A stretch of 64,000 nucleotides of DNA, from positions 2,803-66,802 of the forward strand of contig CADAZC010000002.1 of NCBI GenBank assembly GCA_902792295.1, written 5' to 3'. Position 1 is the first letter of the stretch. The number at the start of each line of letters is the position of its first letter. This stretch comes from an uncultured Eubacteriales bacterium. Its GTDB lineage: Bacteria > Bacillota > Clostridia > Christensenellales > CAG-138. The translations under genes were made by a program, and so were the position numbers. Positions 5,140 to 56,325 of this stretch are shown in pieces. The notes beneath the pieces were generated by a model, which saw only the letters and a list, made by a program, of their open reading frames with translations, was not told the DNA's origin and did not search any database.

Positions 5140-5175
5140 GGATAATCCTCCGATAAACCATTTTCTTTCGATTGT

Positions 5176-5204
5176 ATTATACTCCGAAACGCCCGGCGGT
5201 GCAA
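5176..5204 (-). promoter_or_regulatory. Sigma-A-type promoter candidate for ftsK (TTGCAC-17-TATAAT on minus strand)
   Basis: The minus strand reads TTGCAC, then 17 nt, then TATAAT about 35 nt upstream of the ftsK ATG. This is sequence pattern only. Confidence 0.45.
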
Positions 5205-5250
5205 GCACAAAAAATCGGACGGGTTGCGGCAAGGCGGAATCCGTGATAAA

Positions 5251-5922
5251 ATGACGAAAAACGATACGGAGACGCCGAAAATGAATTTGAGACTTTTGAT
5301 CTGGGACTGGAACGGAACGATCATCGAAGACGCCGACCTGTGCCTTGCGATCGAAAACGAGCTGCTGCGCGAACGCAATATGCCGGAGATCACGCGGGCG
5401 TGGTATCTTGCGCATTTCTCTTTTCCGATCCGCAGATATTATGAAATGATGGGGTACACGTTTGAACGGGAGAGCTTCGAAGCGGTCTCCGAGATCTTCA
5501 TGGAGCGCTACCGGAAGCGGTTTATGCATTGTCCGCTTCGCAGCGGCGTGACGGACGTTCTCCGGGAGGCGCGTCGGCGCGGGATCCGGCAGACGCTGCT
5601 TTCCGTGACGCAGCAGGACGACCTCGTCGAACAGGTGCGCGCGCTCGGCGCGGAGGAGTATTTTTCGGAGATCCTCGGACAGGTCGATATCCTCGGAACG
5701 TCCAAGCTCGACCGCGCAAAGGACTATATGGCGCGCATGGGGATCGACCCCGCGGACGCGCTGTTTATCGGCGATACCGATCACGACGCCGAAGCGGCGA
5801 AGGCGGTCGGCTGCCGCTGTGCGCTTCTGGAGGGCGGACACCAGTCCCGCGAAGTGCTGCTGCGGTGCGGCGTGCCCGTGTATGCTTCCGCGGAAGCGCT
5901 CTCGAACGTGTTGTTTGACTGA
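5251..5922 (+). CDS. HAD-superfamily hydrolase (phosphoglycolate-phosphatase-like subfamily IA)
   Basis: HAD motif I appears as LLIWDWNGTIIED, and the acidic motif IV as FIGDTDHDAEAA. ATG 5281 (MNLRLLIWDW) is an equally plausible start. Confidence 0.7.
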   Translation: MTKNDTETPKMNLRLLIWDWNGTIIEDADLCLAIENELLRERNMPEITRAWYLAHFSFPIRRYYEMMGYTFERESFEAVSEIFMERYRKRFMHCPLRSGVTDVLREARRRGIRQTLLSVTQQDDLVEQVRALGAEEYFSEILGQVDILGTSKLDRAKDYMARMGIDPADALFIGDTDHDAEAAKAVGCRCALLEGGHQSREVLLRCGVPVYASAEALSNVLFD

Positions 5923-10417: not shown

Positions 10418-10870
10418 ATGAAACTTTCTATCGGATCCGACCACGGCGGATATGCATATAAAGAAGCCGTAAAAGAACATCTCCTATCGCAGGGACATGA
10501 AGTGATCGACTGCGGCTGCTTCGGCACCGAGAGCGTCGACTACCCGGAATTCGGCATTAAAGCGGCAGAACTTGTACGCGACGGAGAAGTCGATCGCGGC
10601 ATCGTCATCTGCACGACCGGCATCGGCATGTCCATCGCCGCGAACAAGGTCCGCGGCATTCGCTGCGCGCTTTGCGGCGATCTGAAGTCTGCGGAAATGA
10701 CAAGAAGACACAACGATTCAAATGTTTTGGCAATGGGAGCGGGAATTATTCCGCTCTCTTTGGCATTGGAAATCACGGACAAGTGGCTTTCGACCGAGTT
10801 TGAAGGCGGAAGACACGCAAGAAGAATCGGAATTATTACCGCTTATGAGGCGGGGAAGGAGCAAGTATGA
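10418..10870 (+). CDS. rpiB: Ribose-5-phosphate isomerase B
   Basis: 150 aa: [16 protein letters not shown]...[24 protein letters not shown], a RpiB/LacAB family signature. Confidence 0.92.
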
Positions 10871-11493
10871 AAGTAACCGTTATTGACCATCCTCTCGTAC
10901 AGCACAAGCTGTCCAGACTGCGCGACAAGAACACGAGCAACAAGGAATTCCGCGAGCTCGTCAGCGAACTTGCAATGCTGATGTGCTACGAGGTCACGCG
11001 CGATCTTCCGCTCGTCGATGCGGAGATTGAAACGCCGATCTGCAAGAGCACGTTCAAAGTGCTTGCGAACGAAAAGATCGCAATCGTGCCGATCCTCAGA
11101 GCAGGTCTCGGCATGGCGGACGGCATGATGAACATGATCCCGAATGCCAAGATGGGACATATCGGCATGTACCGCAATCCCGACACGCTGAAGCCCACCA
11201 GCTACTACTGCAAGCTTCCGTACGACATTGAAGAGCGCGACGCGATCCTGGTCGACCCGATGCTGGCAACCGGCAACTCCGCGATCGAGGGCATCCGCGT
11301 GCTCAAAGAGGGCGGCGCAAAGAGCATCCGTCTCGTGAACCTGCTGGCGGCGCCCGAGGGCATCGAAGCGATCCGCAAGGTCTATGACGACGTTGACATC
11401 TATGTCGCATGCATCGATGAAAAGCTGAACGATCACGGCTACATCGTTCCGGGTCTCGGCGACGCGGGCGACCGTCTGTTCGGCACGAAATAA
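10867..11493 (+). CDS. upp: Uracil phosphoribosyltransferase
   Basis: 208 aa with [14 protein letters not shown] at the N-terminus, the PRPP loop [11 protein letters not shown] and C-terminal [17 protein letters not shown]. Confidence 0.95.
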
Positions 11494-11513
11494 GCATTCA
11501 AACGGAGAAGAGT

Positions 11514-11828
11514 ATGACGAGTATCATGGAACGGATCGCTGAAGCGGAGACCCGTGCCGACGCGATTCTCGAAGAAGCAAACCGCACGGCGAGAGAGCTT
11601 GTCGCAAAGACCAAAACCGAAGCGGAGGACGCGATCGCCGCTGCGGCGGAATCTCAGCGGGCACATACCGTCGAGATTCTTCAGCAGGCACAGACAGACG
11701 GCGAAGCGATCGCCGCCGAAGTGACGGAGCGGGCGAAATCCGAAACCGACAAGCTAATCGGCGAGGCGGAGAAAAATGTTCCCGAAGCGGTTGCATATTT
11801 GATGGAAAGGATTGAAGCAACGGTATGA
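11514..11828 (+). CDS. V-type ATPase small peripheral-stalk subunit (G/H-like; position of E. hirae ntpF)
   Basis: 104-aa Ala/Glu/Lys-rich predicted coiled coil. It is the first gene of the V-ATPase operon and its stop overlaps the subunit I start. It is assigned by position and composition only. Confidence 0.6.
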   Translation: MTSIMERIAEAETRADAILEEANRTARELVAKTKTEAEDAIAAAAESQRAHTVEILQQAQTDGEAIAAEVTERAKSETDKLIGEAEKNVPEAVAYLMERIEATV

Positions 11829-13813
11829 TCGTATCGATGAAGCGCCTGTCTTTGGTCGCGCTGAAATCGGATCAGGACGCAATTCTCAATGCGCTGCAGG
11901 AAGCCGGAACGGTGGAGATCATCAAGCTCGCCGACGGCGACGTGCAGAGCGGGGATGCGGACACGGTCAACGCGCGCATTCAAAGACTTGCCGAATCCAT
12001 CAACGCCGTCAAGCCGTACGCGAAGAAGCCCGGTTTTTTAAGTCCGCAGAAGCGTGAAATGAAGCTTTCGGACATGCGTGAATACGTGCCGAAAGCGGAG
12101 CAGACGACGAACGAGATCGAAGAACTGACGCATACGCAGGCACGCCTTCTGTCGGAACGGGAGAAGGCGGTTTCGACGCGCGAAGCGCTGGAACCGTGGG
12201 AGGCGATGACCGTGCCGATGGATACGGTCAAAAACACGCCGCGCGTGCACTATTTCATCGGACTTCTCGCTTCGAAGGACGTGGAGCGCGTACGTGAGCA
12301 GGAGTATCTGGAAGCGGAGTTTATGAACGAAAGCGCGACCGTTCCGACGATTCTCGCCTGCAAAGAGGATGATACGCGCATTGTGCAGAACTTCCTGAAG
12401 ACGGTCGAATGGCAGGACTACGTATTTCCGAAACTGCCGGGAACGCCGCGGGAAGCGATCGAATCGCTGAACCGGAGGATCGCCGAGATCGACGGGGAAT
12501 ACGACGCAGCGCAGAAGGAACTCGAAGCGCGCGGCGAAACGATCGAGACGCTGCAGAACGCGCTGGATGCGGAAACGATCGACGCGGACCGTCTGTCGGC
12601 AAACAATGACCTTTCCTATACGGCGCATGCATTTGTGCTGGAGGGATGGGTCCGTGACGACGAGGTCGAAAAGACCGAACAGGCGATCAAAAACGTGACG
12701 GAAGCGTACAGCTTTGAAGTACGGGATCCGGTCGAAGGCGAGGAGCCGCCGTCGGTTGTGAAGAACAACCGGTTCGTAAAGCCGTTCGAGGAGGTGCAGA
12801 CGCTGTATTCGCGTCCCACCTACGGCACGATCGACGGAACGCCGTACATGACGCCGTTCTATATCCTGCTGTTCGGACTGATGCTTTCCGATACGGGCTA
12901 CGGCATCCTGCTGATGCTCGGCACGCTGCTCTACATCAAAAAGAAAAAACCGACCGGCATGAGCGCGGGCATTTCCCGCGTGCTGTTCTGGGGCGGGCTC
13001 TCCACGATCGTATGGGGCGTTCTCTGCGGTTCGTTCTTCGGCATCACAAAAACGTCGGCGTCCACGATCGAGGTCGGCGGCGTATTCAGTCAGATCTCCA
13101 TGTTCTTTGAAAAGCTCGGGATCTTCCCGGCGCTGCTCGATCCGATGCAGAATTCCATGGTAATGCTCGGGCTGTGCTTCGGGCTCGGCGTTCTGCATAT
13201 CGTTGCGGGATACATCGTCGGCGCAATCGACAGGTTCTCGAAAGGCGATTGGAAAAGCGCGATCTTCGATCAGATCTCCTGGGTGCTGATTACGCTCGGG
13301 CTGGTCGTCGGCTTCCTTCCGGCGATCGCCGGAATGGCGGGCATGTCGGTTACTCTTCCGAAGTCCGTTACGATGCCCGCGCTGATCGCCGCAGGCGTCG
13401 GCGCTTTGATGGTCGTTCTGTTCAAGGGCAGAGAGAAGAGAAACATTCTGAAACGCATGATGAGCGGGCTCGGCGGACTCTATGACGTCACGAGCGTTCT
13501 GGCGGACATCCTGTCCTATGCGCGTCTGTTCGCGCTCGGAATCGCAACCGGCGTCATCGGGCAGGTCTTCAACATGCTCTGCGGCATGCTGGCGAGCGCA
13601 TCGAACCCCGTGATGAAGATCGTCGGCGCGATCGGCAGCATCGTTCTGCTCGTGCTTCTGCATACGTTCAATGTCGCGATCAACGCGCTCGGCGCGTTCG
13701 TGCACTGCGCAAGACTGCAGTACGTCGAGTTCTACGGCAAGTTCTACGAATCCGGCGGAAAGGAATTCCGTCCGCTTTCATACAACACCAAACACGTTCA
13801 GGTAACAAAGTAA
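11825..13813 (+). CDS. ntpI: V-type ATP synthase subunit I (a-subunit homolog)
   Basis: 662 aa. An N-terminal soluble coiled-coil half is followed by a C-terminal multi-TM half containing the conserved Arg region ILSYARLFALGIATG. Confidence 0.9.
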   Translation: MIVSMKRLSLVALKSDQDAILNALQEAGTVEIIKLADGDVQSGDADTVNARIQRLAESINAVKPYAKKPGFLSPQKREMKLSDMREYVPKAEQTTNEIEELTHTQARLLSEREKAVSTREALEPWEAMTVPMDTVKNTPRVHYFIGLLASKDVERVREQEYLEAEFMNESATVPTILACKEDDTRIVQNFLKTVEWQDYVFPKLPGTPREAIESLNRRIAEIDGEYDAAQKELEARGETIETLQNALDAETIDADRLSANNDLSYTAHAFVLEGWVRDDEVEKTEQAIKNVTEAYSFEVRDPVEGEEPPSVVKNNRFVKPFEEVQTLYSRPTYGTIDGTPYMTPFYILLFGLMLSDTGYGILLMLGTLLYIKKKKPTGMSAGISRVLFWGGLSTIVWGVLCGSFFGITKTSASTIEVGGVFSQISMFFEKLGIFPALLDPMQNSMVMLGLCFGLGVLHIVAGYIVGAIDRFSKGDWKSAIFDQISWVLITLGLVVGFLPAIAGMAGMSVTLPKSVTMPALIAAGVGALMVVLFKGREKRNILKRMMSGLGGLYDVTSVLADILSYARLFALGIATGVIGQVFNMLCGMLASASNPVMKIVGAIGSIVLLVLLHTFNVAINALGAFVHCARLQYVEFYGKFYESGGKEFRPLSYNTKHVQVTK

Positions 13814-13844
13814 AATCTATAATGGAAAAGGAGAAACTAACAAC

Positions 13845-14327
13845 ATGAATTGGGGTGCAATTTGGGCGACCGCCGGTGCGGTCATTGCAGCATTATTGGC
13901 AGGTATCGGTTCCGCGATCGGCGTCGGTATCACGGGTCAGGCGTCCGCGGGCGTCGTTTCCGAGAATCCGGATCTCTCCGGTAAGTGCCTGCTTCTTCAG
14001 CTCCTTCCCGGTACGCAGGGCATCTACGGTCTGCTGATTGCAATCGTCATCATGAGCAACTCCGGCTTGATGGGCGATGCGGCAAAGCTGGCTGCGCTGG
14101 AAGCAAATACGGCGCTCGGCGTCCGTTTCTTCCTGGCGGGTCTTCCCATTGCGTTCGGCGGTCTTCTGTCCGCGCTTTATCAGGGCAAGGTTGCCGTTGC
14201 AGGCATCAACATGGTAGCAAAGAAGCCCACCGAAAGCGGTAAGGGCATGGTCATGGCGATCATGGTCGAGACCTACGCGGTTCTGTCCCTGCTCATTTCC
14301 TTCCTCCTCGTCAACAGCATTTTATAA
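13845..14327 (+). CDS. ntpK: V-type ATP synthase subunit K (16-kDa double-hairpin proteolipid)
   Basis: 160 aa with 4 TM segments. It aligns by eye to E. hirae NtpK: LLQLLPGTQGIYGLLIA, LPIAFGGLLSALYQGKVAVAGI, AIMVETYAVLSLLISFLLV. Confidence 0.92.
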   Translation: MNWGAIWATAGAVIAALLAGIGSAIGVGITGQASAGVVSENPDLSGKCLLLQLLPGTQGIYGLLIAIVIMSNSGLMGDAAKLAALEANTALGVRFFLAGLPIAFGGLLSALYQGKVAVAGINMVAKKPTESGKGMVMAIMVETYAVLSLLISFLLVNSIL

Positions 14328-14342
14328 GAAACGAGGCACGGT

Positions 14343-14915
14343 ATGGGAAACGAGAATGCAGCAAACCTCATCGACAGGATCTTGGCGGACGCAAAAGAAG
14401 CGGCCGCGAAGGTGCTTGCCGACGCAGAGGCCTCCGCAAGCGGCATCCGTAAATCCCGGGACGAAGAGATCGCAAAGAAAGCCGAGCAGGTCGAAAAGGA
14501 ACGCGAGCAGCAGATTTCCGTTATTCTGAACGGCTGCCGCACGCGCGCCGAGCTCGACGGACGCAAGGACACCCTCCGCGCAAAGCGCGCGCTGCTGGAC
14601 GGCGTGTTTGCCGAAACCTACGCAAGAATGCTTGCGCTGGCGACGGACAGACGGGAAGCCCTGTTCCTTTCGGTCCTCGAAAAGGAAGCGAAGGCGAACG
14701 ATACCGTGATGCCGGCGAAAGTGGATCGCGCGGTGATCGAGCATGCGGCGAAGAAACTGCCGTTCCGCGTCAAGGTATCCGATCGGGATGCAGAGGCGGA
14801 GGCGGGCTTTGTTCTGTTCGGCGACGGGTATGAAAAAGACTGCTCCATGAAAGCGATCTTAAGAGAACTTCGCGACGCGGAAGAAACGAATGTCGCAAAG
14901 ATTCTATTTCGGTAA
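14343..14915 (+). CDS. ntpE: V-type ATP synthase subunit E
   Basis: 190 aa. A charged N-terminal coiled coil is followed by a globular C-terminus. The position between K and C matches the ntp operon. Confidence 0.8.
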   Translation: MGNENAANLIDRILADAKEAAAKVLADAEASASGIRKSRDEEIAKKAEQVEKEREQQISVILNGCRTRAELDGRKDTLRAKRALLDGVFAETYARMLALATDRREALFLSVLEKEAKANDTVMPAKVDRAVIEHAAKKLPFRVKVSDRDAEAEAGFVLFGDGYEKDCSMKAILRELRDAEETNVAKILFR

Positions 14916-14929
14916 GAGAGGAGAGGACT

Positions 14930-15919
14930 ATGCCGCAACCGAGTTACGCATACGCATGTGCGAGACTGTCCGCGCTGAATAAACGGCTCATCGAGCCGCA
15001 GACGATCCAGCGCATGCTGGACGGTTCCGCTTCGGATGCGATGCGCGCGCTGTCCGACGTTCGCTACGGCAATCTTTCCGACGCGACGGAAGCGGACATT
15101 GAGCGTATGATTGAGCGGGAAATGAGCGATGCCATGCAGGAGGTCCGGGAGCTTTCTCCGAACCCCGATGTCACCGATCTGTTCCTGCTGCGCGCGGACG
15201 TGCAGAACCTCAAGGTGCTCTTAAAGGCGCGGCTTTTGAATCAAACCGACGTTTCGTTCACGCCGGGCGGATTGTTCGATCGGGAAACGCTGACCGCAAT
15301 GGTCAAGGAGCGCCAGTACGACGCTCTGCCGAAGGAACTTCGGGACGCGCTGGACGCGCTGGAAAAGCGGCTGGAGATCCGCGTGGAACCGCGGGACATC
15401 TCGATTGCGCTCGACCGCGCGTATCTTGCGCACGCGCTGAAACAGTCCGCGAAGCATCCGGTCTTCTCGCAGTATTTCCGCGCCCAGGCGGATTTCGACA
15501 ATGTGCTGACGTTTCTGCGTCTCCGCGCAATGGGCGCGTCGATCGAAACGCTTGACGAGGTCATTCTGCCTGAGGGCGGCGTGCGTTATGAGGACCTGTA
15601 TAACGCTTACGAGTTTTCGTTCGATTCGCTGAACCGCATCCTCGGCAGAAGCGTTTGTCCGAACGCACTGCTTTCCGGGCTGAACGCGATGCAGCGCACG
15701 GGCAGCATTGCCGAAGTCGAAAAAGCGCGGGACAATTATCTGGTGTCGCTGCTTTCGGAGCACAAATACGAAAACGAATCCATCTACCCGATTATCGGCT
15801 ATTATCTTGCGAAGGAGCGCGAGGGCAGGGCGGTGCGCCTTATCGTGACGGGCAAGCGCAACGGTCTTTCCGACAGCGTGATTCGCGAAAGGTTGGTGAA
15901 GCTGTATGGCGAACGGTAA
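14930..15919 (+). CDS. ntpC: V-type ATP synthase subunit C (eukaryotic d homolog)
   Basis: 329 aa, helical. The N-terminus YAYACARLSALNKRLIE is typical of bacterial V-type subunit C, and the operon position agrees. Confidence 0.8.
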   Translation: MPQPSYAYACARLSALNKRLIEPQTIQRMLDGSASDAMRALSDVRYGNLSDATEADIERMIEREMSDAMQEVRELSPNPDVTDLFLLRADVQNLKVLLKARLLNQTDVSFTPGGLFDRETLTAMVKERQYDALPKELRDALDALEKRLEIRVEPRDISIALDRAYLAHALKQSAKHPVFSQYFRAQADFDNVLTFLRLRAMGASIETLDEVILPEGGVRYEDLYNAYEFSFDSLNRILGRSVCPNALLSGLNAMQRTGSIAEVEKARDNYLVSLLSEHKYENESIYPIIGYYLAKEREGRAVRLIVTGKRNGLSDSVIRERLVKLYGER

Positions 15920-23542: not shown

Positions 23543-23793
23543 GCGTTTTCCTCCCGGATGCGCTTTGTGCGCGGATCGCGTTTTCTTCGACGGCAAACGG
23601 AATGCCGCCGAAAACACACATGGTATTATAGCATATCCGACAGAATCGGGCAAGATGATTCTGACATATTGCGGCGAACCGGCACGACGGATACGGCAGC
23701 CGTTCGAACCGGGTCGTTTCGGGACGATGGAAAGGCGAACCGGACCGCGCCGATCGCCGGACACGCACCGGTATGTTTTTGTATAATGCGGAT

Positions 23794-26043
23794 ATGCGGA
23801 AGGACAGACAGGCAACAGAGTATGGACGGGAAACACTGACCGGCACGCTCGTCGTGATCGGCGGGTTCTTCTGCGCGCTGCTCTTGTCACGCGTGCGGAT
23901 CCACGACCTGCATACGCCGCTGGCACTCGGACTTTTGCTCGGCAGTCAGCTTGCGGGGTTCGATCCGGCGCCGATCGTCGGCGGCGTCATCCTCGGCGCG
24001 TTCTCCGAATCGCGCCCGTACTGGCAGGGCGTTGCCGTCGCTCTGCTGTATTGGGGTATCACGCGGATCGTTCTTCTGTTTCGCAAAAAGTGCCGTCCCA
24101 CGTTTCGCTTTCTGATCTATATCGCCTGCGTGCTGATCACGCTTCCCGTTTCGGCGGTCCACGGCACGGAGGAACTGCTGTACGGGATGATATCCCTGTC
24201 CGTTTCCGTGCTGTCCGCCGTATGCTTCCGACGCGTCTGCCAAACCGTCAAAACAATGCACGGTTCGCGTATGCTGACCGAAACCGAGCAGGGTGCGATT
24301 GTGCTGGGGATCGGCACGCTGCTGCTTGCCGTCTCGGACGCAAAACTGCTTCTTTGGTCGCTGCCCGTCACGCTGATCCTGCTGCTTACAGCGACGGCTG
24401 TTTCGGCGCGGGGCGTCTTCGGCGCGGCGGCGGGAACGCTCTGGTCCGTCATGCTCGTGCTGTACGCAAAGACCGATCCGGTGCTGATCGGAAGCGTCGC
24501 GCTGGGTGCGCTCGGCGCGGCGGCGGTGCGTGAAAAAGGCAAGCTGTTTATCATCGGCGCGTTTGTGCTGTCCGGCGTGCTGTTCCAATCGTTTCTGAAA
24601 CAGCAGGCGTACGGAATGAGTGTTCCGAACCTTTTGAGCGCCATGCTGATCTTTTTGATCATTCCGAAGGACTGGCTCGAATACCTGCGCGCGTACACGG
24701 ATCCGCGGCTGTATGCGGATCGACTGGCAGCGGATTCCGTTCGGCGAACCGAAAGACGCGCGTCGCATGAACTGGAACGCATGGGAAAGCTTCTCGGCGG
24801 ACTTTCCGGCATGTTCTGTACCGCGTCCGAGGAAACGGAATCCGTCGAGCTTTGGACCGTACAGGGCGCGCTTTCCGTTTGCCGCGGATGCGGGCGGCGC
24901 AGCGCGTGCTGGAACGATGCGGACGTCATGCGGGAAGCGGTCATGTCGCTTGCAAAGGAAACGGAGACGGAGAACCGGTCGGAGCCGATCGGACCGATCG
25001 ATGAAAACTGCCGGCGCTTTGACGATCTGTGTTCATCCGTCCGGTTGGCGTATCGGCAGGCGGAAAGCCGGGAGGCAGTCAGCCGTCGGGCGAAAAGCCA
25101 GTCCTGTTTTGCCGAACGGCAGTTGTCCGGCGCGGGAGCGGCGCTTTGTACGTATGCCAGACGAATGCGGAACCGCGCGCGGAGTACGGGACACAGGGAA
25201 CGAAAAATCAGAGATCGCCTGATCGAGGCGGGGTATCGTGTGGAGCAGACGGACGTGTATGTATCGGAAGGATCGGAAACGATCTCGGTACAGCTTCGCC
25301 GCCCGCTGAAAACCGCGCATTCCGCCGTGCAATGGGAAATCGAGCAGGCGTGCGGATATAAGCTGCGCTGTATCCGGGTCGCGCAAAACAAAGACCGCGT
25401 GTCGTTTGAATTTGAGCAGGACGCGGAACTGCATGCGGCGGCGCAGGTTTACAGAACGACCGGGGACGACACCGTCAGCGGGGATGCGACAGGGGAATGC
25501 CGTTTCCCGGACGGCAGGATTTGCTTCGCCTTATCGGACGGAATGGGAAGCGGCAAGACCGCGCGGCAGGAAAGCGAAGCGGCGATCCGTCTGTTGTTCC
25601 GGCTGTATCATGCGGGCGTACGGAAGGAACTCGTCTATGAAAATGTCAATCGCATGCTGATGGCGCAGAACGAAACGGAGATGTACGCTACGCTCGATGC
25701 GGTTTCGATCGACCTGAATTCGGGCGAGGCGGAGCTTTTGAAATACGGCGCGCCGCCGAGCTTCCTTCTGCGGGACGGTCAGGTCAGCGCAATCACGGGG
25801 GAAGCGCTTCCGTGCGGGATTCTCGCAGAAGCGAAGCCGAGCGTCATTCGCATCCGGCTGAAACGGAACGACCGCATCGTGCTTTGCTCCGACGGCGTGC
25901 AGGACGTTTTGCCGGAGGGGATGGAGGCGGCGATCCGTGCGGTCGCGGACGATCCGAAAAAAACGGGAGATGCGCTTCTGCGGCTTGCACAGTCGCGCGG
26001 GGGATCGGATGACATGACGGTAATGGTCATCCATGTGGCATGA
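23794..26043 (+). CDS. spoIIE: Stage II sporulation protein E (membrane PP2C phosphatase)
   Basis: About 10 N-terminal TM segments are followed by a central regulatory region. The C-terminal PP2C domain reads FALSDGMGSG...LCSDGVQD...GGSDDMTVMVIHV. The start is uncertain between ATG 23794 and 23773, and neither has an SD. The stop overlaps the spoIIGA ATG. Confidence 0.88.
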   Translation: MRKDRQATEYGRETLTGTLVVIGGFFCALLLSRVRIHDLHTPLALGLLLGSQLAGFDPAPIVGGVILGAFSESRPYWQGVAVALLYWGITRIVLLFRKKCRPTFRFLIYIACVLITLPVSAVHGTEELLYGMISLSVSVLSAVCFRRVCQTVKTMHGSRMLTETEQGAIVLGIGTLLLAVSDAKLLLWSLPVTLILLLTATAVSARGVFGAAAGTLWSVMLVLYAKTDPVLIGSVALGALGAAAVREKGKLFIIGAFVLSGVLFQSFLKQQAYGMSVPNLLSAMLIFLIIPKDWLEYLRAYTDPRLYADRLAADSVRRTERRASHELERMGKLLGGLSGMFCTASEETESVELWTVQGALSVCRGCGRRSACWNDADVMREAVMSLAKETETENRSEPIGPIDENCRRFDDLCSSVRLAYRQAESREAVSRRAKSQSCFAERQLSGAGAALCTYARRMRNRARSTGHRERKIRDRLIEAGYRVEQTDVYVSEGSETISVQLRRPLKTAHSAVQWEIEQACGYKLRCIRVAQNKDRVSFEFEQDAELHAAAQVYRTTGDDTVSGDATGECRFPDGRICFALSDGMGSGKTARQESEAAIRLLFRLYHAGVRKELVYENVNRMLMAQNETEMYATLDAVSIDLNSGEAELLKYGAPPSFLLRDGQVSAITGEALPCGILAEAKPSVIRIRLKRNDRIVLCSDGVQDVLPEGMEAAIRAVADDPKKTGDALLRLAQSRGGSDDMTVMVIHVA

Positions 26044-26984
26044 AGCTTGCGATCGAGCCGTTCCTTTTGGACAACACGCTGATGAACTGCTGCGTATATC
26101 TGCTCGCGGCGGCATGGATGGGCGTGCGGCTGCGTATTCTGCCCGCGCTCGGCGTTTCGCTGCTCGGCGCCGTGTATGCGCTGCTTTCGCTGTTTTATGT
26201 TCCGCTGCTCCGGACGCCGCTCGTTAAGATCGGCTCCTTTCTGCTGCTTTCGCTGCCGCTGTTCCGGCGTTCGGGGGCATGGAAATGTATTCCGTTTCTG
26301 CTGCTGTCCGCCGCGCTTACGGGCGGCACGGCGATGTTTCTGACGCTTTGGCTCGGCGGTACCGTTTATGCGGACGGAACAATGATCGGCACCGTCCCGC
26401 TGCGTGCGGCGCTGTTTTCGACGTTTGCTGCGCTCTGCCTGCCGCGACTGATCCGCGGACTGCTGACGGTGCGCAAACGGCGCGCCCTGCATACCCGCGT
26501 CATTGTGCGGCTCAAAGAGCATACCCATTGCCTTGACGCGCTGATCGATAGCGGGAATCTTTTGAAGGAACCGATTTCCGGGCTTCCCGTAATTCTGATT
26601 GCATGCGAGATCGACCGTCCCGAACGCCCGATCCCGTTCGAGAAGCTTTCCGGGGGCGGCGTTCTGTACGGGGAACGCCCGATATCCGTTTCGCTGCCGG
26701 AGTACGGAAACGCCTCGGTCGACTGCGTCTGCGCAACGGCGCCGGAGCCGATCGGAACAGCGCAGGCGATTCTGCCGGAATGTCTCTTACCGTATGATTG
26801 GAGGTCAGGAAATGATCACATGGTTTTACCGTATTTTGGCACGCCTGTTCGTGCGGCTTCGCATTGGCAGACGCAATACCTTATGGTACATTCATTCAAA
26901 CGAAAGTCTGCCGCCGCCGCTGGATCCCGAGGAGGAAGCGCGATGCATCGCGCTTGCGCCGACCGACAAGGAAGCGAAGGATAA
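26040..26984 (+). CDS. spoIIGA: Sigma-E processing peptidase SpoIIGA
   Basis: An N-terminal 5-TM domain is followed by the aspartic-protease motif [14 protein letters not shown]. The gene lies immediately upstream of sigE. The frame has no stop until 26984, which is 173 nt inside sigE, so the last ~57 aa may be a non-functional read-on. Confidence 0.85.
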
Positions 26985-27525
26985 GCTGATCGTACACAAC
27001 CTTCGTCTGGTCGTATACCTTGCGCGCAAGTTCGAGAATACGGGCGTGCAGACGGAAGATCTGATCAGCATCGGCACGATCGGCCTGATCAAAGCGGTCG
27101 AAACGTTCAAAGCCGACAAAAAGATCAAGCTTGCGACCTACGCCTCGCGCTGCATCGAAAACGAGATCCTGATGCATCTTCGTCGCACGACCAAACTGAA
27201 GCTCGAGGTCAGCTTCGACGAGCCGTTGAACGTCGACTGGGACGGCAACGAACTGCTGCTTTCCGATGTGCTCGGAACCGATCCGGACGTCGTCAGCAAG
27301 GACATGGAGGACGAGGTCGAACGCGAGCTGCTGAAAAAAGCGCTTTCCAAGCTCTCGGAGCGGGAAAGGGACATCATCGACCTGCGCTTCGGGCTCAAAA
27401 ACGGCGAGGTGCAGACACAGAAGCAGGTCGCGGACGCCATGGGCATCTCACAGAGCTATATCAGCCGCCTCGAAAAACGGATCATGAAGCGACTGAAACG
27501 CGAGATCGTGCGTCTGCAGTCATGA
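26812..27525 (+). CDS. sigE: RNA polymerase sporulation sigma factor E (pro-sigma-E)
   Basis: ATG 26812 has the SD GGAGGTCAGGA. The pro-sequence is [19 protein letters not shown]. Region 2 reads [16 protein letters not shown] and [12 protein letters not shown]. Region 4 reads [22 protein letters not shown]. Confidence 0.92.
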
Positions 27526-28362
27526 CCTGACGTATTTTTCAAGCTGTTTCAGCGCATTCTTCTCAAGCCGGGAGACCTGTGCCTGCGAGATGCCGATCTC
27601 TTTGGAAACCTCCACCTGGGTACGGCAGGCGAAATACCGGAGATTCAGAATCTTCCGGTCGCGTTCTCCGAGGTGCGAGATGCCTTCCCGGAGGGCAATC
27701 GCGTCGATGCGTTTCGCTTCGCTGTCCTTCGGATCGCAGATCTGGTCGAGCACGCATAGCGTATCGTCGTCCGTGTTGAACACTGGATCGTACAGGGAAA
27801 CGGGGTCGGAGATCGCATCGAGCGCAAACACCACGTCCGCTTCCGGAATGCCGAGTTCCTTCGCAATCTCACCGACGGTCGGTTCGCGTGAGAGGGCGTC
27901 GGTCAGCCGCAGCTTTGCCTGCATGGCGCGGTACGCGGTATCGCGCATGGAGCGCGGAACGCGGACGGCGCTGTAATCGCGCAGATGCCTTCGGATCTCG
28001 CCCGCAATCATCGGCACCGCATAGGTGGAGAAGCGGACATTCTGCTTGAGGTCGAATCCATCGACCGATTTGATAAGACCGATGCAGCCGACCTGAAACA
28101 GATCGTCTGCAAGCTCGCCGCGACCGGCGAAACGCTGCACAACCGAAAGAACGAGGCGCAGATTGGAGTAGATAAACCGCTCGCGCGCCTCCGAATCGCC
28201 CGATTTCGCCTTTATCAGAAGCGCACGCATCTCTTCCGGCTTCAGACGCGGCAGACGGGACGTGTCGATATTTGTGATCTCAACTTTTTGCAGGGAAATC
28301 ACCTCCGGAAAATAGTCTGTCCTTCCTGCCGCGCGTTCAAACAGCACGGACGGATTTGACAT
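27520..28362 (-). CDS. sigG: RNA polymerase sporulation sigma factor G
   Basis: It aligns by eye along its whole length with B. subtilis Sig[84 protein letters not shown]. The start is uncertain: ATG 28362, or a non-ATG start near 28305 just after GGAGGTGA. Confidence 0.85.
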
Positions 28363-28412
28363 ACTTTTCCAATCGTGATACGATACAGCAAAGATCACGC
28401 GGAGGAAGCGCC

Positions 28413-52048: not shown

Positions 52049-53722
52049 GTGCTCACTCGTTTACAAGTTACGAATATTGCTTTGATAGATAAGTCCGACA
52101 TTGCTTTCGATGCGGGCTTTTCTGTATTGACCGGCGAAACGGGCGCAGGCAAATCGATCCTCATCGAGTCGGTCAGCTTTGTGCTCGGCGAGCGCGCAAG
52201 CCGCGAAAGCATTCGCACCGGCGCCGACAAAGCCGCAGTCGAAGCGACGTTCCTGCTTGCAAAGGATTCGCCTGTGAAAGCATATCTTGCCGAACATCAG
52301 CTTGACAACGGCGACGAACTCGTGCTGTACCGCGAGCTGTCTGTAAGCGGCAGAAACGTCTGCCGTGTAAACGGCGTTCTGGTCAGCACCGCGGAGCTCA
52401 AAGCGGTCGGAGACCTGCTGGTCGACCTGCACGGACAGCACGCGCACCAGTCGCTTCTGAATCCGGAAACGCACCTCGAGCTCATCGACGCATACGCCAA
52501 GAGCGATTCGGACGGTTTGAAATCACGCGTCGAGCAGGCAAGACAGGACGCCTTGCAGGCGGAGCGTGATCTGAATATTTTGAAAAACGGTCTGCAGGAG
52601 CGCGCAAGGCGGCTCGATGCGATCGCCTATCAGCTGAAGGAAATCGACGCGGTATCGCCCGTCGACGGCGAGGAGGAGCAGCTGGAAGCCGACCGGCTCC
52701 GCATGCGGAATGCGGAAACGATCGTGGAAGGTCTGAACGCAGCGTACGACGCGCTGTTCGCCGAAGGCGGCGCGCTGTCGACGCTTTCCGACGCGCGCGA
52801 CGCGCTGAACCGCATCGGCGAATACGACGAGTCCTACCGGAAGCTTTCGGAGCGGACCGACGAAGCGTATTATTCCCTTGAGGACGTTGCGTATGAACTG
52901 CGCGACGGACGCGACGCGTTCCGGTTCGATCCCGATCTTCTCGAACAGACGGAAAGCCGTCTCGCGGCGATCCAGAACCTGAAGCGCAAGTACGGCGCAA
53001 CGATTGCCGAAATCCTGGCGTATCGCGAAAAGATCGAAAACGAATACCGCGTTCTGAACGACGGCGAAAACCGCATCGACGCGCTTGAAAAGGCATACCG
53101 GACTGCCGTCGAATCCTTCGGAACACTTGCAAAGGCGCTCTCCGACCGCCGCAAGGCGGCTTCAAAGGAATTGATGAAGGAAACTGTTGCGGAACTGAAC
53201 GACATGGGCATGCCGCACGCCGCAATGGAAACGGAATTCAGGGAGATCCCGAAGGAGCAGCTTTCGGAAACCGGCATCGACACCGTATCGTTCCTGCTTT
53301 CCGCAAACCGCGGCGAGCCGGTGAAGCCGCTCGTCAAGGTTGCAAGCGGCGGCGAAATGTCGCGCATTATGCTGGCGATGAAGGCGGCGCTGTCTGATGC
53401 GGACCGGATCGAAACGCTTATCTTCGACGAGATCGACACGGGCATTTCCGGCATGGTCGCAAACGCCGTTGCCGAAAAGATGCGTGCGCTCGGACGGAAG
53501 CATCAGGTGCTCTGCGTGACGCATCTTCCGCAGATCGCCGCGCATGCCGACGCGCAGTACGTCGCATACAAGTATTCCGATGCGGAAAAAACGCACAGCA
53601 TCACGCGCCGGCTGACCGAAGCGGAACGTCCGAAGGAAATCGCCCGTATCATGGGCAGCGGCGAGAACGACGCGGCGGCAATGGAACACGCGAAGCAGCT
53701 TCTGGAATCTGCAAAGGCATAA
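52049..53722 (+). CDS. recN: DNA repair protein RecN
   Basis: 557 aa with a GTG start after GGAGGG. Walker A is LTGETGAGKSILIES. A long coiled coil follows, then the signature ASGGEMSRIMLA and Walker B TLIFDEIDTG. Confidence 0.93.
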   Translation: MLTRLQVTNIALIDKSDIAFDAGFSVLTGETGAGKSILIESVSFVLGERASRESIRTGADKAAVEATFLLAKDSPVKAYLAEHQLDNGDELVLYRELSVSGRNVCRVNGVLVSTAELKAVGDLLVDLHGQHAHQSLLNPETHLELIDAYAKSDSDGLKSRVEQARQDALQAERDLNILKNGLQERARRLDAIAYQLKEIDAVSPVDGEEEQLEADRLRMRNAETIVEGLNAAYDALFAEGGALSTLSDARDALNRIGEYDESYRKLSERTDEAYYSLEDVAYELRDGRDAFRFDPDLLEQTESRLAAIQNLKRKYGATIAEILAYREKIENEYRVLNDGENRIDALEKAYRTAVESFGTLAKALSDRRKAASKELMKETVAELNDMGMPHAAMETEFREIPKEQLSETGIDTVSFLLSANRGEPVKPLVKVASGGEMSRIMLAMKAALSDADRIETLIFDEIDTGISGMVANAVAEKMRALGRKHQVLCVTHLPQIAAHADAQYVAYKYSDAEKTHSITRRLTEAERPKEIARIMGSGENDAAAMEHAKQLLESAKA

Positions 53723-53759: not shown

Positions 53760-53809
53760 GTATGCTTTTTCAAACGGTTCATATTCTAATCGAAAAGGAG
53801 TTGAACCGT

Positions 53810-55009
53810 ATGAAACGATTGCTGCGCATATGCAGCGCGCTGTGTGTTGTGTTGGTGCTCGGATGGTACTGCCTGCCGGGCGTATATCGGGTCCTGCATC
53901 TTCCGGACTGCGTGGACGCGGAGACCGATCTTGCCGCGCCGGCGATTGCCGCACGGACAAAGGATGCGCGTTTTGTCCGCGGAAGCGGCGACGAGCGTCT
54001 TTCATCCGTCACGGGTCCCGAAACGGAGATCCGACTGTTCGGATTTCTGCCGCTGAAAACCGTGCGCTCGGCGTTGCACGGGAGGACCGTCGTTCTCGGC
54101 GGCGACGTGGTCGGCGTCGTACTGCAAACGGAAGGCGTCCAGATCGTCGGCTTCGACCGGATTGACACGGCAAACGGCGCGCGTTCGCCCGCCGTATCGG
54201 CGGGACTTCGCGAAGGCGATATGATCTGCGCGGTCAACGGACAGAAGGTTGCCGATTCCGAATCCTTTGCAGCCCTTTGCGCCGCTGCGGGCGAAACCTG
54301 CGAACTGTCCTGCCTGCGGGACGGAAAGGCGTTTACCGTGCAGGTAAGCCCCGTATCGGATCGCGGCGGGGAAAAACGGATCGGCGCATGGGTGCGCGAC
54401 AGCACCTCCGGAATCGGCACGCTTTCTTTTTATGACGACGAAAGCGGCGCATATGCCGCATTGGGACACGGCGTGACGGACGTGGACACGCAGAAGCTGA
54501 TTTCTCCGGCAAAGGGGTTTCTGACGGAAGCGTCGATCGTGCAGATCCGAAAGAGCGGCGGCAGCGCGGCGGGAGAGTTGATCGGACGGTTTTCGACGAG
54601 CAGCAAGGACGCTGTTGCATCGGTCGAACGGAATACGCCGTTCGGCATTGCGGGAACGCTGACGAAGTTTTCCGACGCCGATAAACGTTCGATGGAGATT
54701 GCGCCCGCAGGCGCGGTGCACAGGGGAGAGGCGGTCATTCTTTCGGCGGCAAACGGGACGGTCACGGAATACACGGCAAACGTCATTCGCGTCGACGTGC
54801 AATCCTCCCCGGAAACGCAGGGAATCATGATCGAGATCACGGATCCCGCGCTTCTCCGGCAGACGGGCGGAATCGTGCAGGGAATGAGCGGCAGTCCTCT
54901 CATTCAGGACGGGCGGCTGATCGGCATCGTGACGCACGTCTTTATCAGCCATCCGACGCGCGGGTACTGCCTGTATGCCGAATGGATGGAAGAAGAACTG
55001 CTCGGATAG
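53810..55009 (+). CDS. spoIVB: SpoIVB peptidase (S55 signalling serine protease)
   Basis: ATG 53810 has the SD AAAAGGAG. The protein is 399 aa with a signal anchor. The PDZ region reads GLREGDMICAVNGQKV. The S55 domain shows GTLSFYD....YAALGH and the catalytic Ser in GIVQGMSGSPLI. Confidence 0.9.
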   Translation: MKRLLRICSALCVVLVLGWYCLPGVYRVLHLPDCVDAETDLAAPAIAARTKDARFVRGSGDERLSSVTGPETEIRLFGFLPLKTVRSALHGRTVVLGGDVVGVVLQTEGVQIVGFDRIDTANGARSPAVSAGLREGDMICAVNGQKVADSESFAALCAAAGETCELSCLRDGKAFTVQVSPVSDRGGEKRIGAWVRDSTSGIGTLSFYDDESGAYAALGHGVTDVDTQKLISPAKGFLTEASIVQIRKSGGSAAGELIGRFSTSSKDAVASVERNTPFGIAGTLTKFSDADKRSMEIAPAGAVHRGEAVILSAANGTVTEYTANVIRVDVQSSPETQGIMIEITDPALLRQTGGIVQGMSGSPLIQDGRLIGIVTHVFISHPTRGYCLYAEWMEEELLG

Positions 55010-55106
55010 ACGTTATTTCATCGTTCTACCGAAATCCGACATAAAATACCGGTAGATTTTTCCAACATCGCGACGCACAATAAGAGCGGACGGGAGGAAA
55101 AAATCA

Positions 55107-55814
55107 ATGCGGATTATGCTTTTGTCGGGCGATCGGAAAACGGCGCGCGCGTTTGCGGATGCGGCGGAGGAAACGGGCAAGGTGCGGCTTTGCGTGCTGA
55201 AAAACACGGCGCAGGTTCTGGAACGGTTCTTTCGCGATCCGTTCGACGCGCTGCTTTCCGATGATCCGTCCGTTCTTTTGCCGCGTGTTCAAAAATGCTC
55301 GGTTCTGTGGCCGAATCACATCTTTTTACTTCTTTCGGAGTCCGTCGGCAATGTCAGACTGCCCGAAATGCTGACGTTCTGCTTTTCGAAGGACGACGAT
55401 CCGAAGGATATCCTTTTCCGCATATCGCAGTTTCCCGAAGGACACAGAAACAGGAACAATCCGGAGGTCGAGATTTCACGCTTTTTGCAGCAGATCGGCA
55501 TTCCGGTTTCACTGAGCGGATTCGAATACCTGCGCGAGGCAATTCGTCTGATTCTTGCGCAGGAATCGGCGATCGACGTCCGATCCGTAAACGATCTTTA
55601 CGGGATTCTTTCGATGGAAACGGGGGTGAGCGCCGGCGTCACGGAGCACGCCATGCGGCACGCGATCGACACGGCGTGGATACGGGCGGATACGGCGCTG
55701 CTTGAAAACCTGTTCGGATACACGGTCCGATCGGATCGCGGCGCGCCGTCCAACGCGGCGTTCCTGTTCCGTGCGGCAGATCATATCAGATTAAACAGAG
55801 GGGGGATCGTTTGA
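55107..55814 (+). CDS. spo0A: Spo0A-like regulator: degenerate N-terminal receiver plus Spo0A C-terminal DNA-binding domain, in the syntenic spo0A position
   Basis: 235 aa with the SD GGGAGG. The C-terminal half aligns by eye with B. subtilis Spo0A: IGIPVSLSGFEYLREAI, HAMRHAIDTAW, LFGYTV, APSNAAFLFRAADHIRL. The N-terminal ~105 aa is only weakly receiver-like (LLSGDR, ALLSDDP, LLLSES, FSKDDDP). The symbol is given on synteny and the C-domain only. Confidence 0.7.
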   Translation: MRIMLLSGDRKTARAFADAAEETGKVRLCVLKNTAQVLERFFRDPFDALLSDDPSVLLPRVQKCSVLWPNHIFLLLSESVGNVRLPEMLTFCFSKDDDPKDILFRISQFPEGHRNRNNPEVEISRFLQQIGIPVSLSGFEYLREAIRLILAQESAIDVRSVNDLYGILSMETGVSAGVTEHAMRHAIDTAWIRADTALLENLFGYTVRSDRGAPSNAAFLFRAADHIRLNRGGIV

Positions 55815-56296
55815 TGACAATGGAAGAAATGCAGGAGATGGAGGATATGCTGCGGTCAAGGTACAGCGATCCGGACGCACTTCTGGACGCAACGATCAAC
55901 GCGGTCATGCGCGCGCTGTGTGTGCCGGCAAAGCTGCTCGGCTACCGGTATATCTTTCTTGCGGCGCGGTTCATCCGTACCCGTCCGCCGGAGCTTCGGT
56001 CGACCGCAAAGAAGGAACTGTATCCGTATATTGAGCAGAGCATGCATACCTCGATTCCGATGATCCGCCGGACGATGCATTATGCGATCGAAAAAGCGTG
56101 GAAACGCGCGGATCCCGCCGTTCTGTACTCATATCTGGGACTTCGGGGAAAGCGGCTCAACGATCCGCCCGGAAACATCGAGTTCGTGTATCTCGTCGCC
56201 GAGCGCGTGCGTCTGATCATCGGCGATCCGGTGTGGGAGGAATACTATCAGCGCATTGCAGCCGAAATCAAAAAGCAGTACGGATGGCTAAACTGA
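55814..56296 (+). CDS. Receiver-less Spo0A_C-domain protein (stand-alone paralog of the Spo0A effector domain)
   Basis: 160 aa. The ATG overlaps the upstream stop (TGATG) and is preceded by GAGGGGGG. The sequence reads VPAKLLGYRYIFLAARFI...ELYPYIEQSMHTSIPMIRRTMHYAIEKAW...YLGL...PPGNIEFVYLVAERVRLI. This aligns with the Spo0A helix-turn-helix and flanking helices. There is no N-terminal receiver, only an acidic Met/Glu-rich leader. Confidence 0.65.
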   Translation: MTMEEMQEMEDMLRSRYSDPDALLDATINAVMRALCVPAKLLGYRYIFLAARFIRTRPPELRSTAKKELYPYIEQSMHTSIPMIRRTMHYAIEKAWKRADPAVLYSYLGLRGKRLNDPPGNIEFVYLVAERVRLIIGDPVWEEYYQRIAAEIKKQYGWLN

Positions 56297-56325
56297 TTGA
56301 CGAAGCGCACCGCATATGATAAAAT
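56297..56325 (+). promoter_or_regulatory. Sigma-A-type promoter candidate (TTGACG-17-TAAAAT) upstream of deoB
   Basis: Pattern about 28 nt upstream of ATG 56354. Confidence 0.45.

Follow-up and report, generated by a model that had tools for sequence, protein, structure and literature searches.

A tandem pair of Spo0A_C genes, the first with a pseudo-receiver, at the spo0A position of uncultured rumen Clostridia

The genomic position that usually holds spo0A carries two overlapping genes for proteins with Spo0A-type effector domains in an uncultured Eubacteriales bacterium. These genes lie within a 64,000-nucleotide stretch of contig CADAZC010000002.1 (positions 2,803 to 66,802 of the forward strand, assembly GCA_902792295.1), the whole of which we call the window. 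An initial annotation, made from the letters of this DNA alone, had picked them out as a coupled pair. The genes and features of the locus are as follows.

52049-53722: recN, the upstream neighbour, identified by Pfam.
53762-55009, plus strand: spoIVB, with Peptidase_S55 (236.9 bits) and PDZ domains, which defines the spo0A slot.
55107-55814, plus strand: gene 1, an open reading frame (ORF) of 235 amino acids with a Pfam match.
55107-55442, plus strand: pseudo-receiver of gene 1, residues 1-112, from AlphaFold2, Foldseek and the orthologue alignment.
55473-55787, plus strand: Spo0A_C domain of gene 1, residues 123-227, PF08769 at 74.3 bits.
55797-55816, plus strand: coupling junction, read directly in the sequence.
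55814-56296, plus strand: gene 2, 160 amino acids, a receiver-less Spo0A_C paralogue.
56297-56325, plus strand: sigma-70-like promoter from a consensus scan, TTGACG-17-TAAAAT with a TG before the second hexamer.

Both ORFs are found as the initial annotation described them. The gene 1 stop TGA (55812-55814) and the gene 2 start ATG (55814-55816) share an A within a TGATG overlap, and gene 2 has its own Shine-Dalgarno (SD)-like element, AGAGGGGGG at 55797-55805, located 8 nucleotides 5' of its ATG. Downstream of the pair are a phosphopentomutase-like gene and then a gene of the purine nucleoside phosphorylase family. The sigma-70-like promoter serves the phosphopentomutase gene and marks the 3' boundary of the two-gene unit. 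Because it begins directly 3' of gene 2, the pair looks like a bicistronic unit of its own.

The identification of gene 1 as the positional spo0A also stands. A Spo0A-type gene lies directly 3' of spoIVB here, in related loci and in the canonical loci of Sporosarcina and Paenibacillus, and every complete close locus keeps the order recN-spoIVB-gene1-gene2-deoB (L007-L023, L034 and L001-L006, where the contig reaches). The survey of relatives suggested in the initial annotation found the tandem pair at this slot throughout, between spoIVB and deoB in every related locus fetched.

Spo0A_C (PF08769) is the only Pfam domain in either protein. It scores 74.3 bits over model positions 1-104 of 104 in gene 1 and 64.0 bits over residues 28-131 and model positions 1-103 of 104 in gene 2, and both genes pass the gathering threshold of 25 bits over the full model. 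Matches to structures in the PDB confirm the C-terminal effector domain in each. Scoring both ORFs against PF08769 and the receiver family PF00072 (Response_reg), a check proposed with the initial annotation, thus gives Spo0A_C twice and Response_reg in neither protein, even at E ≤ 1. The equivalog model for Spo0A itself (NCBIfam TIGR02875, spore_0_A) aligns only along its C-terminal ~115 positions, with 79 bits for gene 1 and 63 bits for gene 2, and does not reach its cut-off of 200. In public databases both genes are annotated as "Spo0A C-terminal domain-containing protein" or "hypothetical protein".

The N-terminal half of gene 1 nevertheless has a receiver-type (beta-alpha)5 fold that is CheY-like without alpha4. 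The AlphaFold2 model, likewise a check that the initial annotation had proposed, was built on 52 orthologues and has a mean predicted local distance difference test (pLDDT) score of 86. It contains beta1 (residues 2-6), alpha1 (10-23), beta2 (27-31), alpha2 (34-43), beta3 (48-51), a short and broken alpha3 (54-62), beta4 (71-76), a loop in the place of alpha4 (77-88), beta5 (89-94) and alpha5 (99-107), after which the Spo0A_C helices follow. Foldseek matches this half to the PDB receiver domains of KdpE, MicA, PmrA and VicR with target-normalised template modelling (TM) scores of 0.63-0.72, root-mean-square deviations of 3-4.5 Å and sequence identities of 13-15%.

Sequence searches return no receiver. 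Spo0A_C was the only domain found in the PDB by phmmer with the gene 1 protein at E ≤ 10 and by hmmsearch with a profile of the 52-member family. PF00072 and other receiver-type or minor pseudo-receiver Pfam models match 0 of 52 gene 1 orthologues at E ≤ 1, and Spo0A_C is present in all 52. A search of residues 1-115 against 1.84 billion representative proteins gave 17 matches at E ≤ 0.001, none of which spans the query over a full receiver-length stretch. The 11 best (98-393 amino acids, aligned from residue 1) resemble family members or fragments, and in the six weakest only fragments align, in multiple stretches, with proteins of unrelated length. We conclude that the N-domain represents a pseudo-receiver family outside current Pfam models.

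The five positions of the phospho-acceptor pocket, which comprise an acidic Asp-Asp (DD) pair, the phosphorylated Asp, a Thr or Ser and a Lys, were assigned from the ends of the predicted strands and compared across the orthologues (n = 52).

First DD position: S7 in the window protein; T, S or C in the orthologues, never acidic.
Second DD position: G8 in the window protein; G in 16 orthologues, D in 9, N in 9, E in 7 and others in 11.
Phosphorylated Asp: D52 in the window protein; D in 40, E in 9 and T in 3.
Thr: S77 in the window protein; Ser in 5 of 52, never Thr.
Lys: K95 in the window protein; K in 22 and R in 5.

No intact pocket is therefore found in gene 1, and gene 2 has no receiver at all. 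In the window protein S7-G8 stands in place of the DD pair and the Pro that follows the Lys is gone, D52, S77 and K95 are kept, and the beta3-alpha3 loop (the region of IIMPHLDG) is six residues shorter than in canonical Spo0A. The degenerate receiver of the initial annotation is upheld by the lost DD pair and the absence of Response_reg matches, but the degeneracy is clear only across the orthologues. The accompanying implication that the D, T and K are missing was mistaken for this protein, in which D52, S77 and K95 are present and merely unconserved in relatives. By definition, a domain that lacks any of the five pocket residues is a pseudo-receiver (PMC12632262), and since the first DD position is non-acidic in 52 of 52 sequences, the N-terminal half of gene 1 is one. 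The pocket as a whole is not under selection. Other positions of this half are invariant or nearly so (E39, R43, F46-D47-A48-L49, W68-P69, F93 and P99). These residues, together with the substitution rates given below, indicate that the domain is still constrained and does something, which is probably not phosphotransfer.

It is possible that some members of the family retain a non-canonical acidic pocket. In this case gene 1 would still be phosphorylated at D52, with D53 and D9 as acidic ligands and S77 and K95 in place, and gene 2 would serve as an accessory modulator. An Asp occupies position 9 in 39 of 52 orthologues and position 53 in 46 of 52, and a register shift by one would place D9 at the second DD position. 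The Pfam alignment of the more distant relatives described below can be read in the same way, with the Asp after their S-A as the second DD residue, and this broader clade keeps the D and the K-P. However, neither register restores the first DD position, 12 of 52 sequences have E or T at position 52, position 77 carries Ser in 5 of 52 and Thr in none, and 22 of 52 retain the Lys. The shorter beta3-alpha3 loop, the missing alpha4 and the failure of every profile to recognise a receiver are also difficult to reconcile with phosphorylation. D10, D11, D56 and K108 are needed for the function and dimerisation of C. difficile Spo0A, and D10A, D11A and K108A each cripple the canonical protein (bioRxiv 10.1101/2022.02.07.479450). 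We consider a working non-canonical pocket unlikely.

The effector domain of gene 1 closely resembles that of Spo0A. It matches the structures 1lq1 and 1fc3 by sequence (phmmer E = 6e-17), and Foldseek aligns the modelled C-terminal half to the same two Spo0A effector structures with target-normalised TM scores of 0.84-0.89. The motif LFGYTV, which we take to be part of the sigma-A-activating region of B. subtilis Spo0A (residues ~227-240), is kept. The recognition helix reads EHAMRHAIDTAW and has E, A, R, H, A, I, A and W in common with ERAIRHAIEVAW of B. subtilis. Its R-to-H change also occurs in the genuine Spo0A proteins of Sporosarcina and Paenibacillus, which read EHAIRHAIEVAW, and a core of E-H-A-x-R-H-A-I...W...R is common to all sequences compared, canonical Spo0A included. 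The initial claim of an altered recognition helix is weak, as the helix is near the canonical core, differs little from the Sporosarcina and Paenibacillus helices and is accompanied by a conserved 0A-like box upstream of the gene.

Gene 2 consists of an acidic N-terminal lead (residues 1-27), the Spo0A_C domain (residues 28-131, nucleotides 55895-56206) and a conserved C-terminal extension that begins GDPxxEE (residues 137-160). It matches 1lq1 at E = 2e-12, and nearly all of its 49 homologues, which come exclusively from metagenomes or metagenome-assembled genomes (MAGs), are ~160 amino acids long. Pfam and the overlap of the reading frames confirm a stand-alone Spo0A_C protein that lacks a receiver and is translationally coupled to gene 1. 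Its helix reads RRTMHYAIEKAW, and YLGLRG stands where gene 1 has LFGYTV. M83, R86, Y90, A95 and W96 are invariant in the gene 2 family, and A91 and I92 are nearly so. Because the helix and the YLGLRG segment both differ from those of gene 1, the two halves of the pair could contact DNA and RNA polymerase differently.

Most close loci with separate genes have overlapping or abutting gene 1 and gene 2 ORFs. Others encode a single fused ORF of 385-397 amino acids (L016, L017 and L021; protein clusters P0042, P0044, P0046, P0058 and P0067-P0070) in which the end of gene 1 is joined directly to Met1 of gene 2. When the gene 1 part is placed on a neighbour-joining tree, fusions occur in at least 4 separate clades, each of them next to unfused relatives. 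This scattering implies that fusion or fission happened repeatedly, which is a classic sign of proteins that act as one unit. A mixed MAFFT alignment of the fused, gene 1 and gene 2 families was discarded when the gene 1 Spo0A_C domain fell on the second domain of the fusions. Separately, the 90%-identity cluster P0041 mixes 235-residue gene 1, 160-residue gene 2 and 395-residue fusion proteins, probably by fusion bridging, and the member counts of these families are consequently unreliable.

Both genes are under purifying selection, gene 2 more strongly. The ratio of nonsynonymous to synonymous substitution rates (dN/dS) is 0.13-0.47 in both halves of gene 1, 0.02-0.07 in the Spo0A_C domain of gene 2 and 0.02-0.17 in its N-terminal lead. 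These values and the conservation of the pair across more than 50 orthologues led us to reject pseudogene formation or decay. Gene 2 was initially called the more divergent of the two, and this description is correct with respect to canonical or Bacillus Spo0A, but in this lineage selection constrains it more tightly than gene 1.

RNA-derived contigs indicate that both genes are transcribed in the rumen. In the bovine cDNA metatranscriptome X27, contigs cover 55127-55621 and 55624-56283, and the second of these spans the junction. Depth is 4-7 over the pair, 66 over recN and 43.5 over the downstream genes, with a step from ~4 to 43.5 at 56357, and three other RNA runs also hold pieces of the region. 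This uneven depth, though a rough measure when taken from an assembler, fits RNA better than contaminating DNA.

The history of the pair can be followed in its relatives. We found 76 homologues of gene 1 in a collection of 5.8 billion proteins, down to 38% identity, all of them with PF08769 only and all from metagenomes or MAGs; the cluster members include no cultured carrier. A scan of species-representative genomes with the patterns EHA[MI]RHAI and R[GA][AT]PSNAAF, in which loci were examined within ~10 kb on either side of the gene, places these homologues in rumen and gut MAGs labelled Clostridia, Clostridiales or Christensenellales. In a more distant set of loci (L025-L033, L035, L038 and L040/L057, the last two being contigs of one MAG), the spoIVB slot holds two longer genes. 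The first, of ~260 amino acids, combines Spo0A_C with a Response_reg match of 26-48 bits (gathering threshold 30.2 bits, which the L035 gene does not reach) and has S-A at the place of the DD pair, with the Asp, the "P..DG" loop and the K-P kept. The second, of 265-282 amino acids, has an N-domain of ~125 residues that Pfam does not recognise, with a beta5-like YVFYKPL motif, followed by Spo0A_C.

Gene 1 is collinear with these distant first genes over residues 3-234 (hhalign probability 100%) and matches them by phmmer at E ~1e-30 over residues 4-230. Gene 2 aligns over its full length with the second tandem gene, including a common extension after Spo0A_C, and its first ~25 residues correspond in the alignment to the final helix-like segment and the linker of the second-gene N-domain. 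The lead of gene 2 may thus be a remnant that corresponds to alpha5 and the linker. Because these relatives carry two full-length tandem copies, the first with a weak Response_reg match, we conclude that the pair arose when spo0A was duplicated in tandem long ago, at the ancestral site 3' of spoIVB. The sequences form a series that leads from canonical Spo0A through a tandem with one weakened and one degenerate receiver to a pseudo-receiver accompanied by no receiver. A phage origin of gene 2 was rejected, since phage copies are only 26-33% identical and are no closer by score than the B. subtilis Spo0A effector domain, and since gene 2 aligns from end to end with the second tandem gene.

Two further kinds of loci were observed. 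A MAG labelled Christensenella sp. (L024:5941-7104) carries a third form of the pair, in which a first gene of 256 amino acids without a Response_reg match is followed by a second gene of 129 amino acids without the C-terminal extension. Many Lachnospiraceae (among L041-L070) have stand-alone proteins of ~150-180 amino acids that match only the Spo0A_C part of gene 1, for example L070:5848-6369 of the cultured Eisenbergiella tayi DSM 26961. An ORF scan of L041-L070 gave no recN, spoIVB or deoB match beside them, and these proteins may be related to the truncated phage spo0A homologues of PMC10294663.

The pair could also be a set of accessory paralogues, with a canonical, phosphorylatable spo0A elsewhere in the genome that runs sporulation while the two-gene module modulates it or competes at 0A boxes. 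Of 118 Spo0A-positive genomes, 11 contain two or three spo0A paralogues (bioRxiv 10.1101/2022.02.25.481979), a second spo0A is present in C. thermocellum (PMC4890492), and gut phages encode receiver-less homologues with the potential to disturb the switch of their host (PMC10294663). Our search reached ~10 kb around the genes. However, the pair occupies the ancestral spoIVB-adjacent slot, and intermediate forms at this same position grade into Response_reg-positive Spo0A. The scan also revealed no second independent locus in any pair-carrying MAG, a weak argument because its patterns would miss helices of the ERAIRHAI type; the only MAG matched twice (L040 and L057) has one locus split across two contigs. 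On this evidence an accessory role is improbable.

The region upstream of gene 1 contains several conserved blocks.

55010-55106, plus strand: spoIVB-gene 1 intergenic region, from an alignment of the window and 17 orthologous loci.
55016-55021, plus strand: conserved block TTTCAT.
55028-55031, plus strand: ACCG, present in 18 of 18 loci.
55035-55041, plus strand: 0A-like box TCCGACA, T(T/C)CG(A/T)CA in many orthologous loci.
55051-55061, plus strand: conserved block GGTAGATTTTT.
55076-55084, plus strand: CACAATAAG, CA(G/C)AATAA, a GAAT-type -10-like block in relatives.
55092-55097, plus strand: SD GGGAGG of gene 1.

The corresponding region of L007-L023 and L034 shows these conserved blocks. 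The box matches the reverse complement of the 0A box (TTCGACA) perfectly in L007 and L011, and canonical spo0A loci have one (Sporosarcina) or three (Paenibacillus) perfect 0A boxes upstream. Autoregulation through the 0A-like site is therefore probable. The first three blocks are ~10-11 bp apart, a spacing that resembles what is presumably the arrangement in 1lq1, with two Spo0A_C domains on tandem 0A boxes. The ACCG block is a candidate for a second, different half-site. The CAGAATAA block resembles a GAAT-type (sigma-H-like) -10 element. In four of the distant loci (L025, L027, L031 and L032), the ~60-190 bp 5' of the Response_reg-positive first gene contain no 0A box and have paired direct TATTCAT repeats ~11 bp apart, such as ATATTCATAAATTATTCATAC, with another, CATATTTATTCA, nearer the start codon. 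These repeats may constitute another type of operator.

Other sporulation genes of the window are spoIIE, spoIIGA, sigE, sigG and spoIIIAA/AB/AE/AG. The scores of sigE (26599-27525, plus strand, 367 bits) and sigG (27520-28398, minus strand, 380 bits) are above their equivalog cut-offs. The initial annotation had described the other sporulation genes as intact. This is accurate for the ORFs, spoIVB included, but spoIIE (23773-26043) scores 258 bits against an NCBIfam cut-off of 491, and spoIIGA (26040-26984) scores 53 bits against 210. Both have diverged much further than sigE and sigG, and Spo0A is not the only unusual part of the early sporulation machinery in this lineage.

Alternatively, the lineage may no longer sporulate, and the pair may be a repurposed remnant that acts as a constitutive transcription factor for a vegetative or stress programme. 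The divergence of spoIIE and spoIIGA would fit this reading. Spo0A occurs in many non-spore-formers (PMC6136694), and the RNA-derived contigs come from ordinary rumen samples. Purifying selection and the spoIVB synteny do not separate this possibility from a sporulation regulator. It is opposed by the sigE and sigG scores and by the intact ORFs of spoIIIAA/AB/AE/AG, spoIVB and spoIIE, and we give it little credence.

Three other features of the window lie outside this argument. The sigE and sigG genes converge on opposite strands; the usual arrangement is spoIIGA-sigE-sigG in one direction. A V-type ATPase operon occupies 10418-15919 (subunit I at 11825-13813 and subunit C at 14930-15919), and a gene for an FtsK/SpoIIIE-type translocase is located at 2428-5841 on the minus strand.

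In canonical Spo0A the receiver keeps the effector domain inactive until phosphorylation drives dimerisation. We lean, with modest confidence, towards the view that the pair is a two-subunit, phosphorylation-independent Spo0A that is controlled mainly by the amount made. A single transcript would yield both proteins through coupled translation, at a constant ratio or joined in one chain, and they would act as a regulator of two subunits, which in several clades is literally one polypeptide. A constitutive pair of Spo0A_C domains, as a heterodimer or a fusion, would replace the phosphorylation-driven Spo0A~P homodimer, and aspartate phosphorylation would not be the input. Activity would be set mainly by expression from the conserved promoter, whose 0A-like box suggests autoregulation, and a partner bound to the conserved alpha2/beta3 surface of the pseudo-receiver could contribute. 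The isolated DNA-binding domain of Spo0A binds genuine targets without phosphorylation (PMC3485338), and a receiver-less Spo0A_C protein is expected by analogy to do the same. The pseudo-receiver, the tandem origin and the coupling are much firmer than this overall model, within which we infer a physical heterocomplex, phosphorylation independence, DNA targets of the 0A type and a role at the start of sporulation.

Several points weigh against a two-subunit, phosphorylation-independent Spo0A. The window protein keeps D52, S77 and K95, and the family shows fair conservation of D9 and D53, so that a non-canonical acidic pocket, and phosphorylation in some members, is conceivable. The complex of the two proteins is deduced, not directly observed, and the AlphaFold model of the natural fusion P0046 has a predicted TM (pTM) score of 0.42 and low confidence at the junction, so the domain arrangement is undefined and the relative placement of the DNA-binding domains cannot be read from it. 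A canonical spo0A could lie elsewhere in genomes viewed ~10 kb either side of the pair. The hosts are uncultured and may or may not sporulate. The low spoIIE and spoIIGA scores count here as well, DNA can be present among metatranscriptome contigs, and assembler depth reflects expression poorly. Finally, no 0A-type motif is enriched in the window: TGTCGAA occurs 5 times (14 expected), TTCGWCA 18 times (28 expected) and ACCG-N5-CGWCA 2 times (1.8 expected), and we consequently propose no regulon.

A stronger claim, which we put forward only tentatively and regard as doubtful in its full form, concerns the lineage as a whole. These rumen Clostridia, some of whose MAGs are labelled Christensenellales and which have sigE, sigG, spoIIE, spoIIIA and spoIVB, may have given up the Asp phosphorylation trigger in favour of an obligate two-chain or fused tandem Spo0A_C protein with a pseudo-receiver. 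The decision to sporulate would lie with transcription and the binding of a partner instead of with kinases or a phosphorelay, and these genomes would have no canonical spo0A.

According to published descriptions, all endospore formers possess Spo0A, which is controlled through phosphorylation at a conserved aspartate (PMC6136694; bioRxiv 10.1101/2022.02.07.479450). If the proposed mechanism is true, this lineage is a natural test of whether a developmental switch can run without phosphorylation input, and the pair is a natural version of the constitutive, receiver-deleted Spo0A made in the laboratory. The presence of spo0A also serves as a marker of sporulation potential in surveys of MAGs (PMC11536998), and genes labelled only by their C-terminal domain would be counted or missed inconsistently depending on the rule applied. 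The pair should surprise specialists in sporulation and raises a testable question; its limits are the uncultured hosts and a possible canonical copy elsewhere. Our literature searches found no paper on a Spo0A orthologue with a pseudo-receiver, on a conserved receiver-less tandem partner or on their fusion. Papers retrieved for tandem, receiver-less or pseudo-receiver Spo0A make general statements about paralogues only, and although pseudo-receivers are common, Spo0A is not mentioned in a 2025 review of them (PMC12632262).

The pair shares with canonical Spo0A of B. subtilis and C. difficile (TIGR02875; 1lq1 and 1fc3) the slot after spoIVB, the Spo0A_C fold (TM 0.84-0.89), the recognition-helix core E-[RH]-A-x-R-H-A-I...W.R, LFGYTV in gene 1 and an upstream 0A-like box. 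Unlike canonical Spo0A, its receiver is unrecognisable by sequence, with the DD pair lost, alpha4 absent and the pocket unconserved, and it always has an attached second, receiver-less copy that is fused in several clades. More than one Spo0A_C-bearing gene per genome is also found in other Clostridia, where two copies occur in 10 genomes and three in Anaerostipes hadrus (bioRxiv 10.1101/2022.02.25.481979). Those paralogues, which we compared by description only, are not described as a tandem overlapping pair, and we found no mention of a pseudo-receiver, receiver loss or fusion in the literature on them. The C. thermocellum genes Clo1313_1409 and Clo1313_0637 are far apart by their locus tags.

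Gene 2 resembles the receiver-less spo0A homologues of phages (PMC10294663) and the isolated DNA-binding domain (PMC3485338) in having Spo0A_C without a receiver. In contrast to the phage copies, to which it is ~30% identical, it is a chromosomal gene, inherited vertically at the spo0A position and invariably accompanied by gene 1, and its N-terminal lead and C-terminal extension are conserved. By analogy, the nearest functional counterpart of the pair would be the heterodimer that BldM and WhiI, two atypical response regulators with pseudo-receivers, form in Streptomyces sporulation (PMC4125116; PMC12632262). BldM and WhiI have NarL/LuxR-type output domains instead of Spo0A_C, are neither adjacent nor fused, and form a demonstrated heterodimer, whereas that of gene 1 and gene 2 is only proposed here. 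Both systems comprise developmental response regulators that act, or in our case may act, independently of phosphorylation and whose output needs two co-expressed partners.

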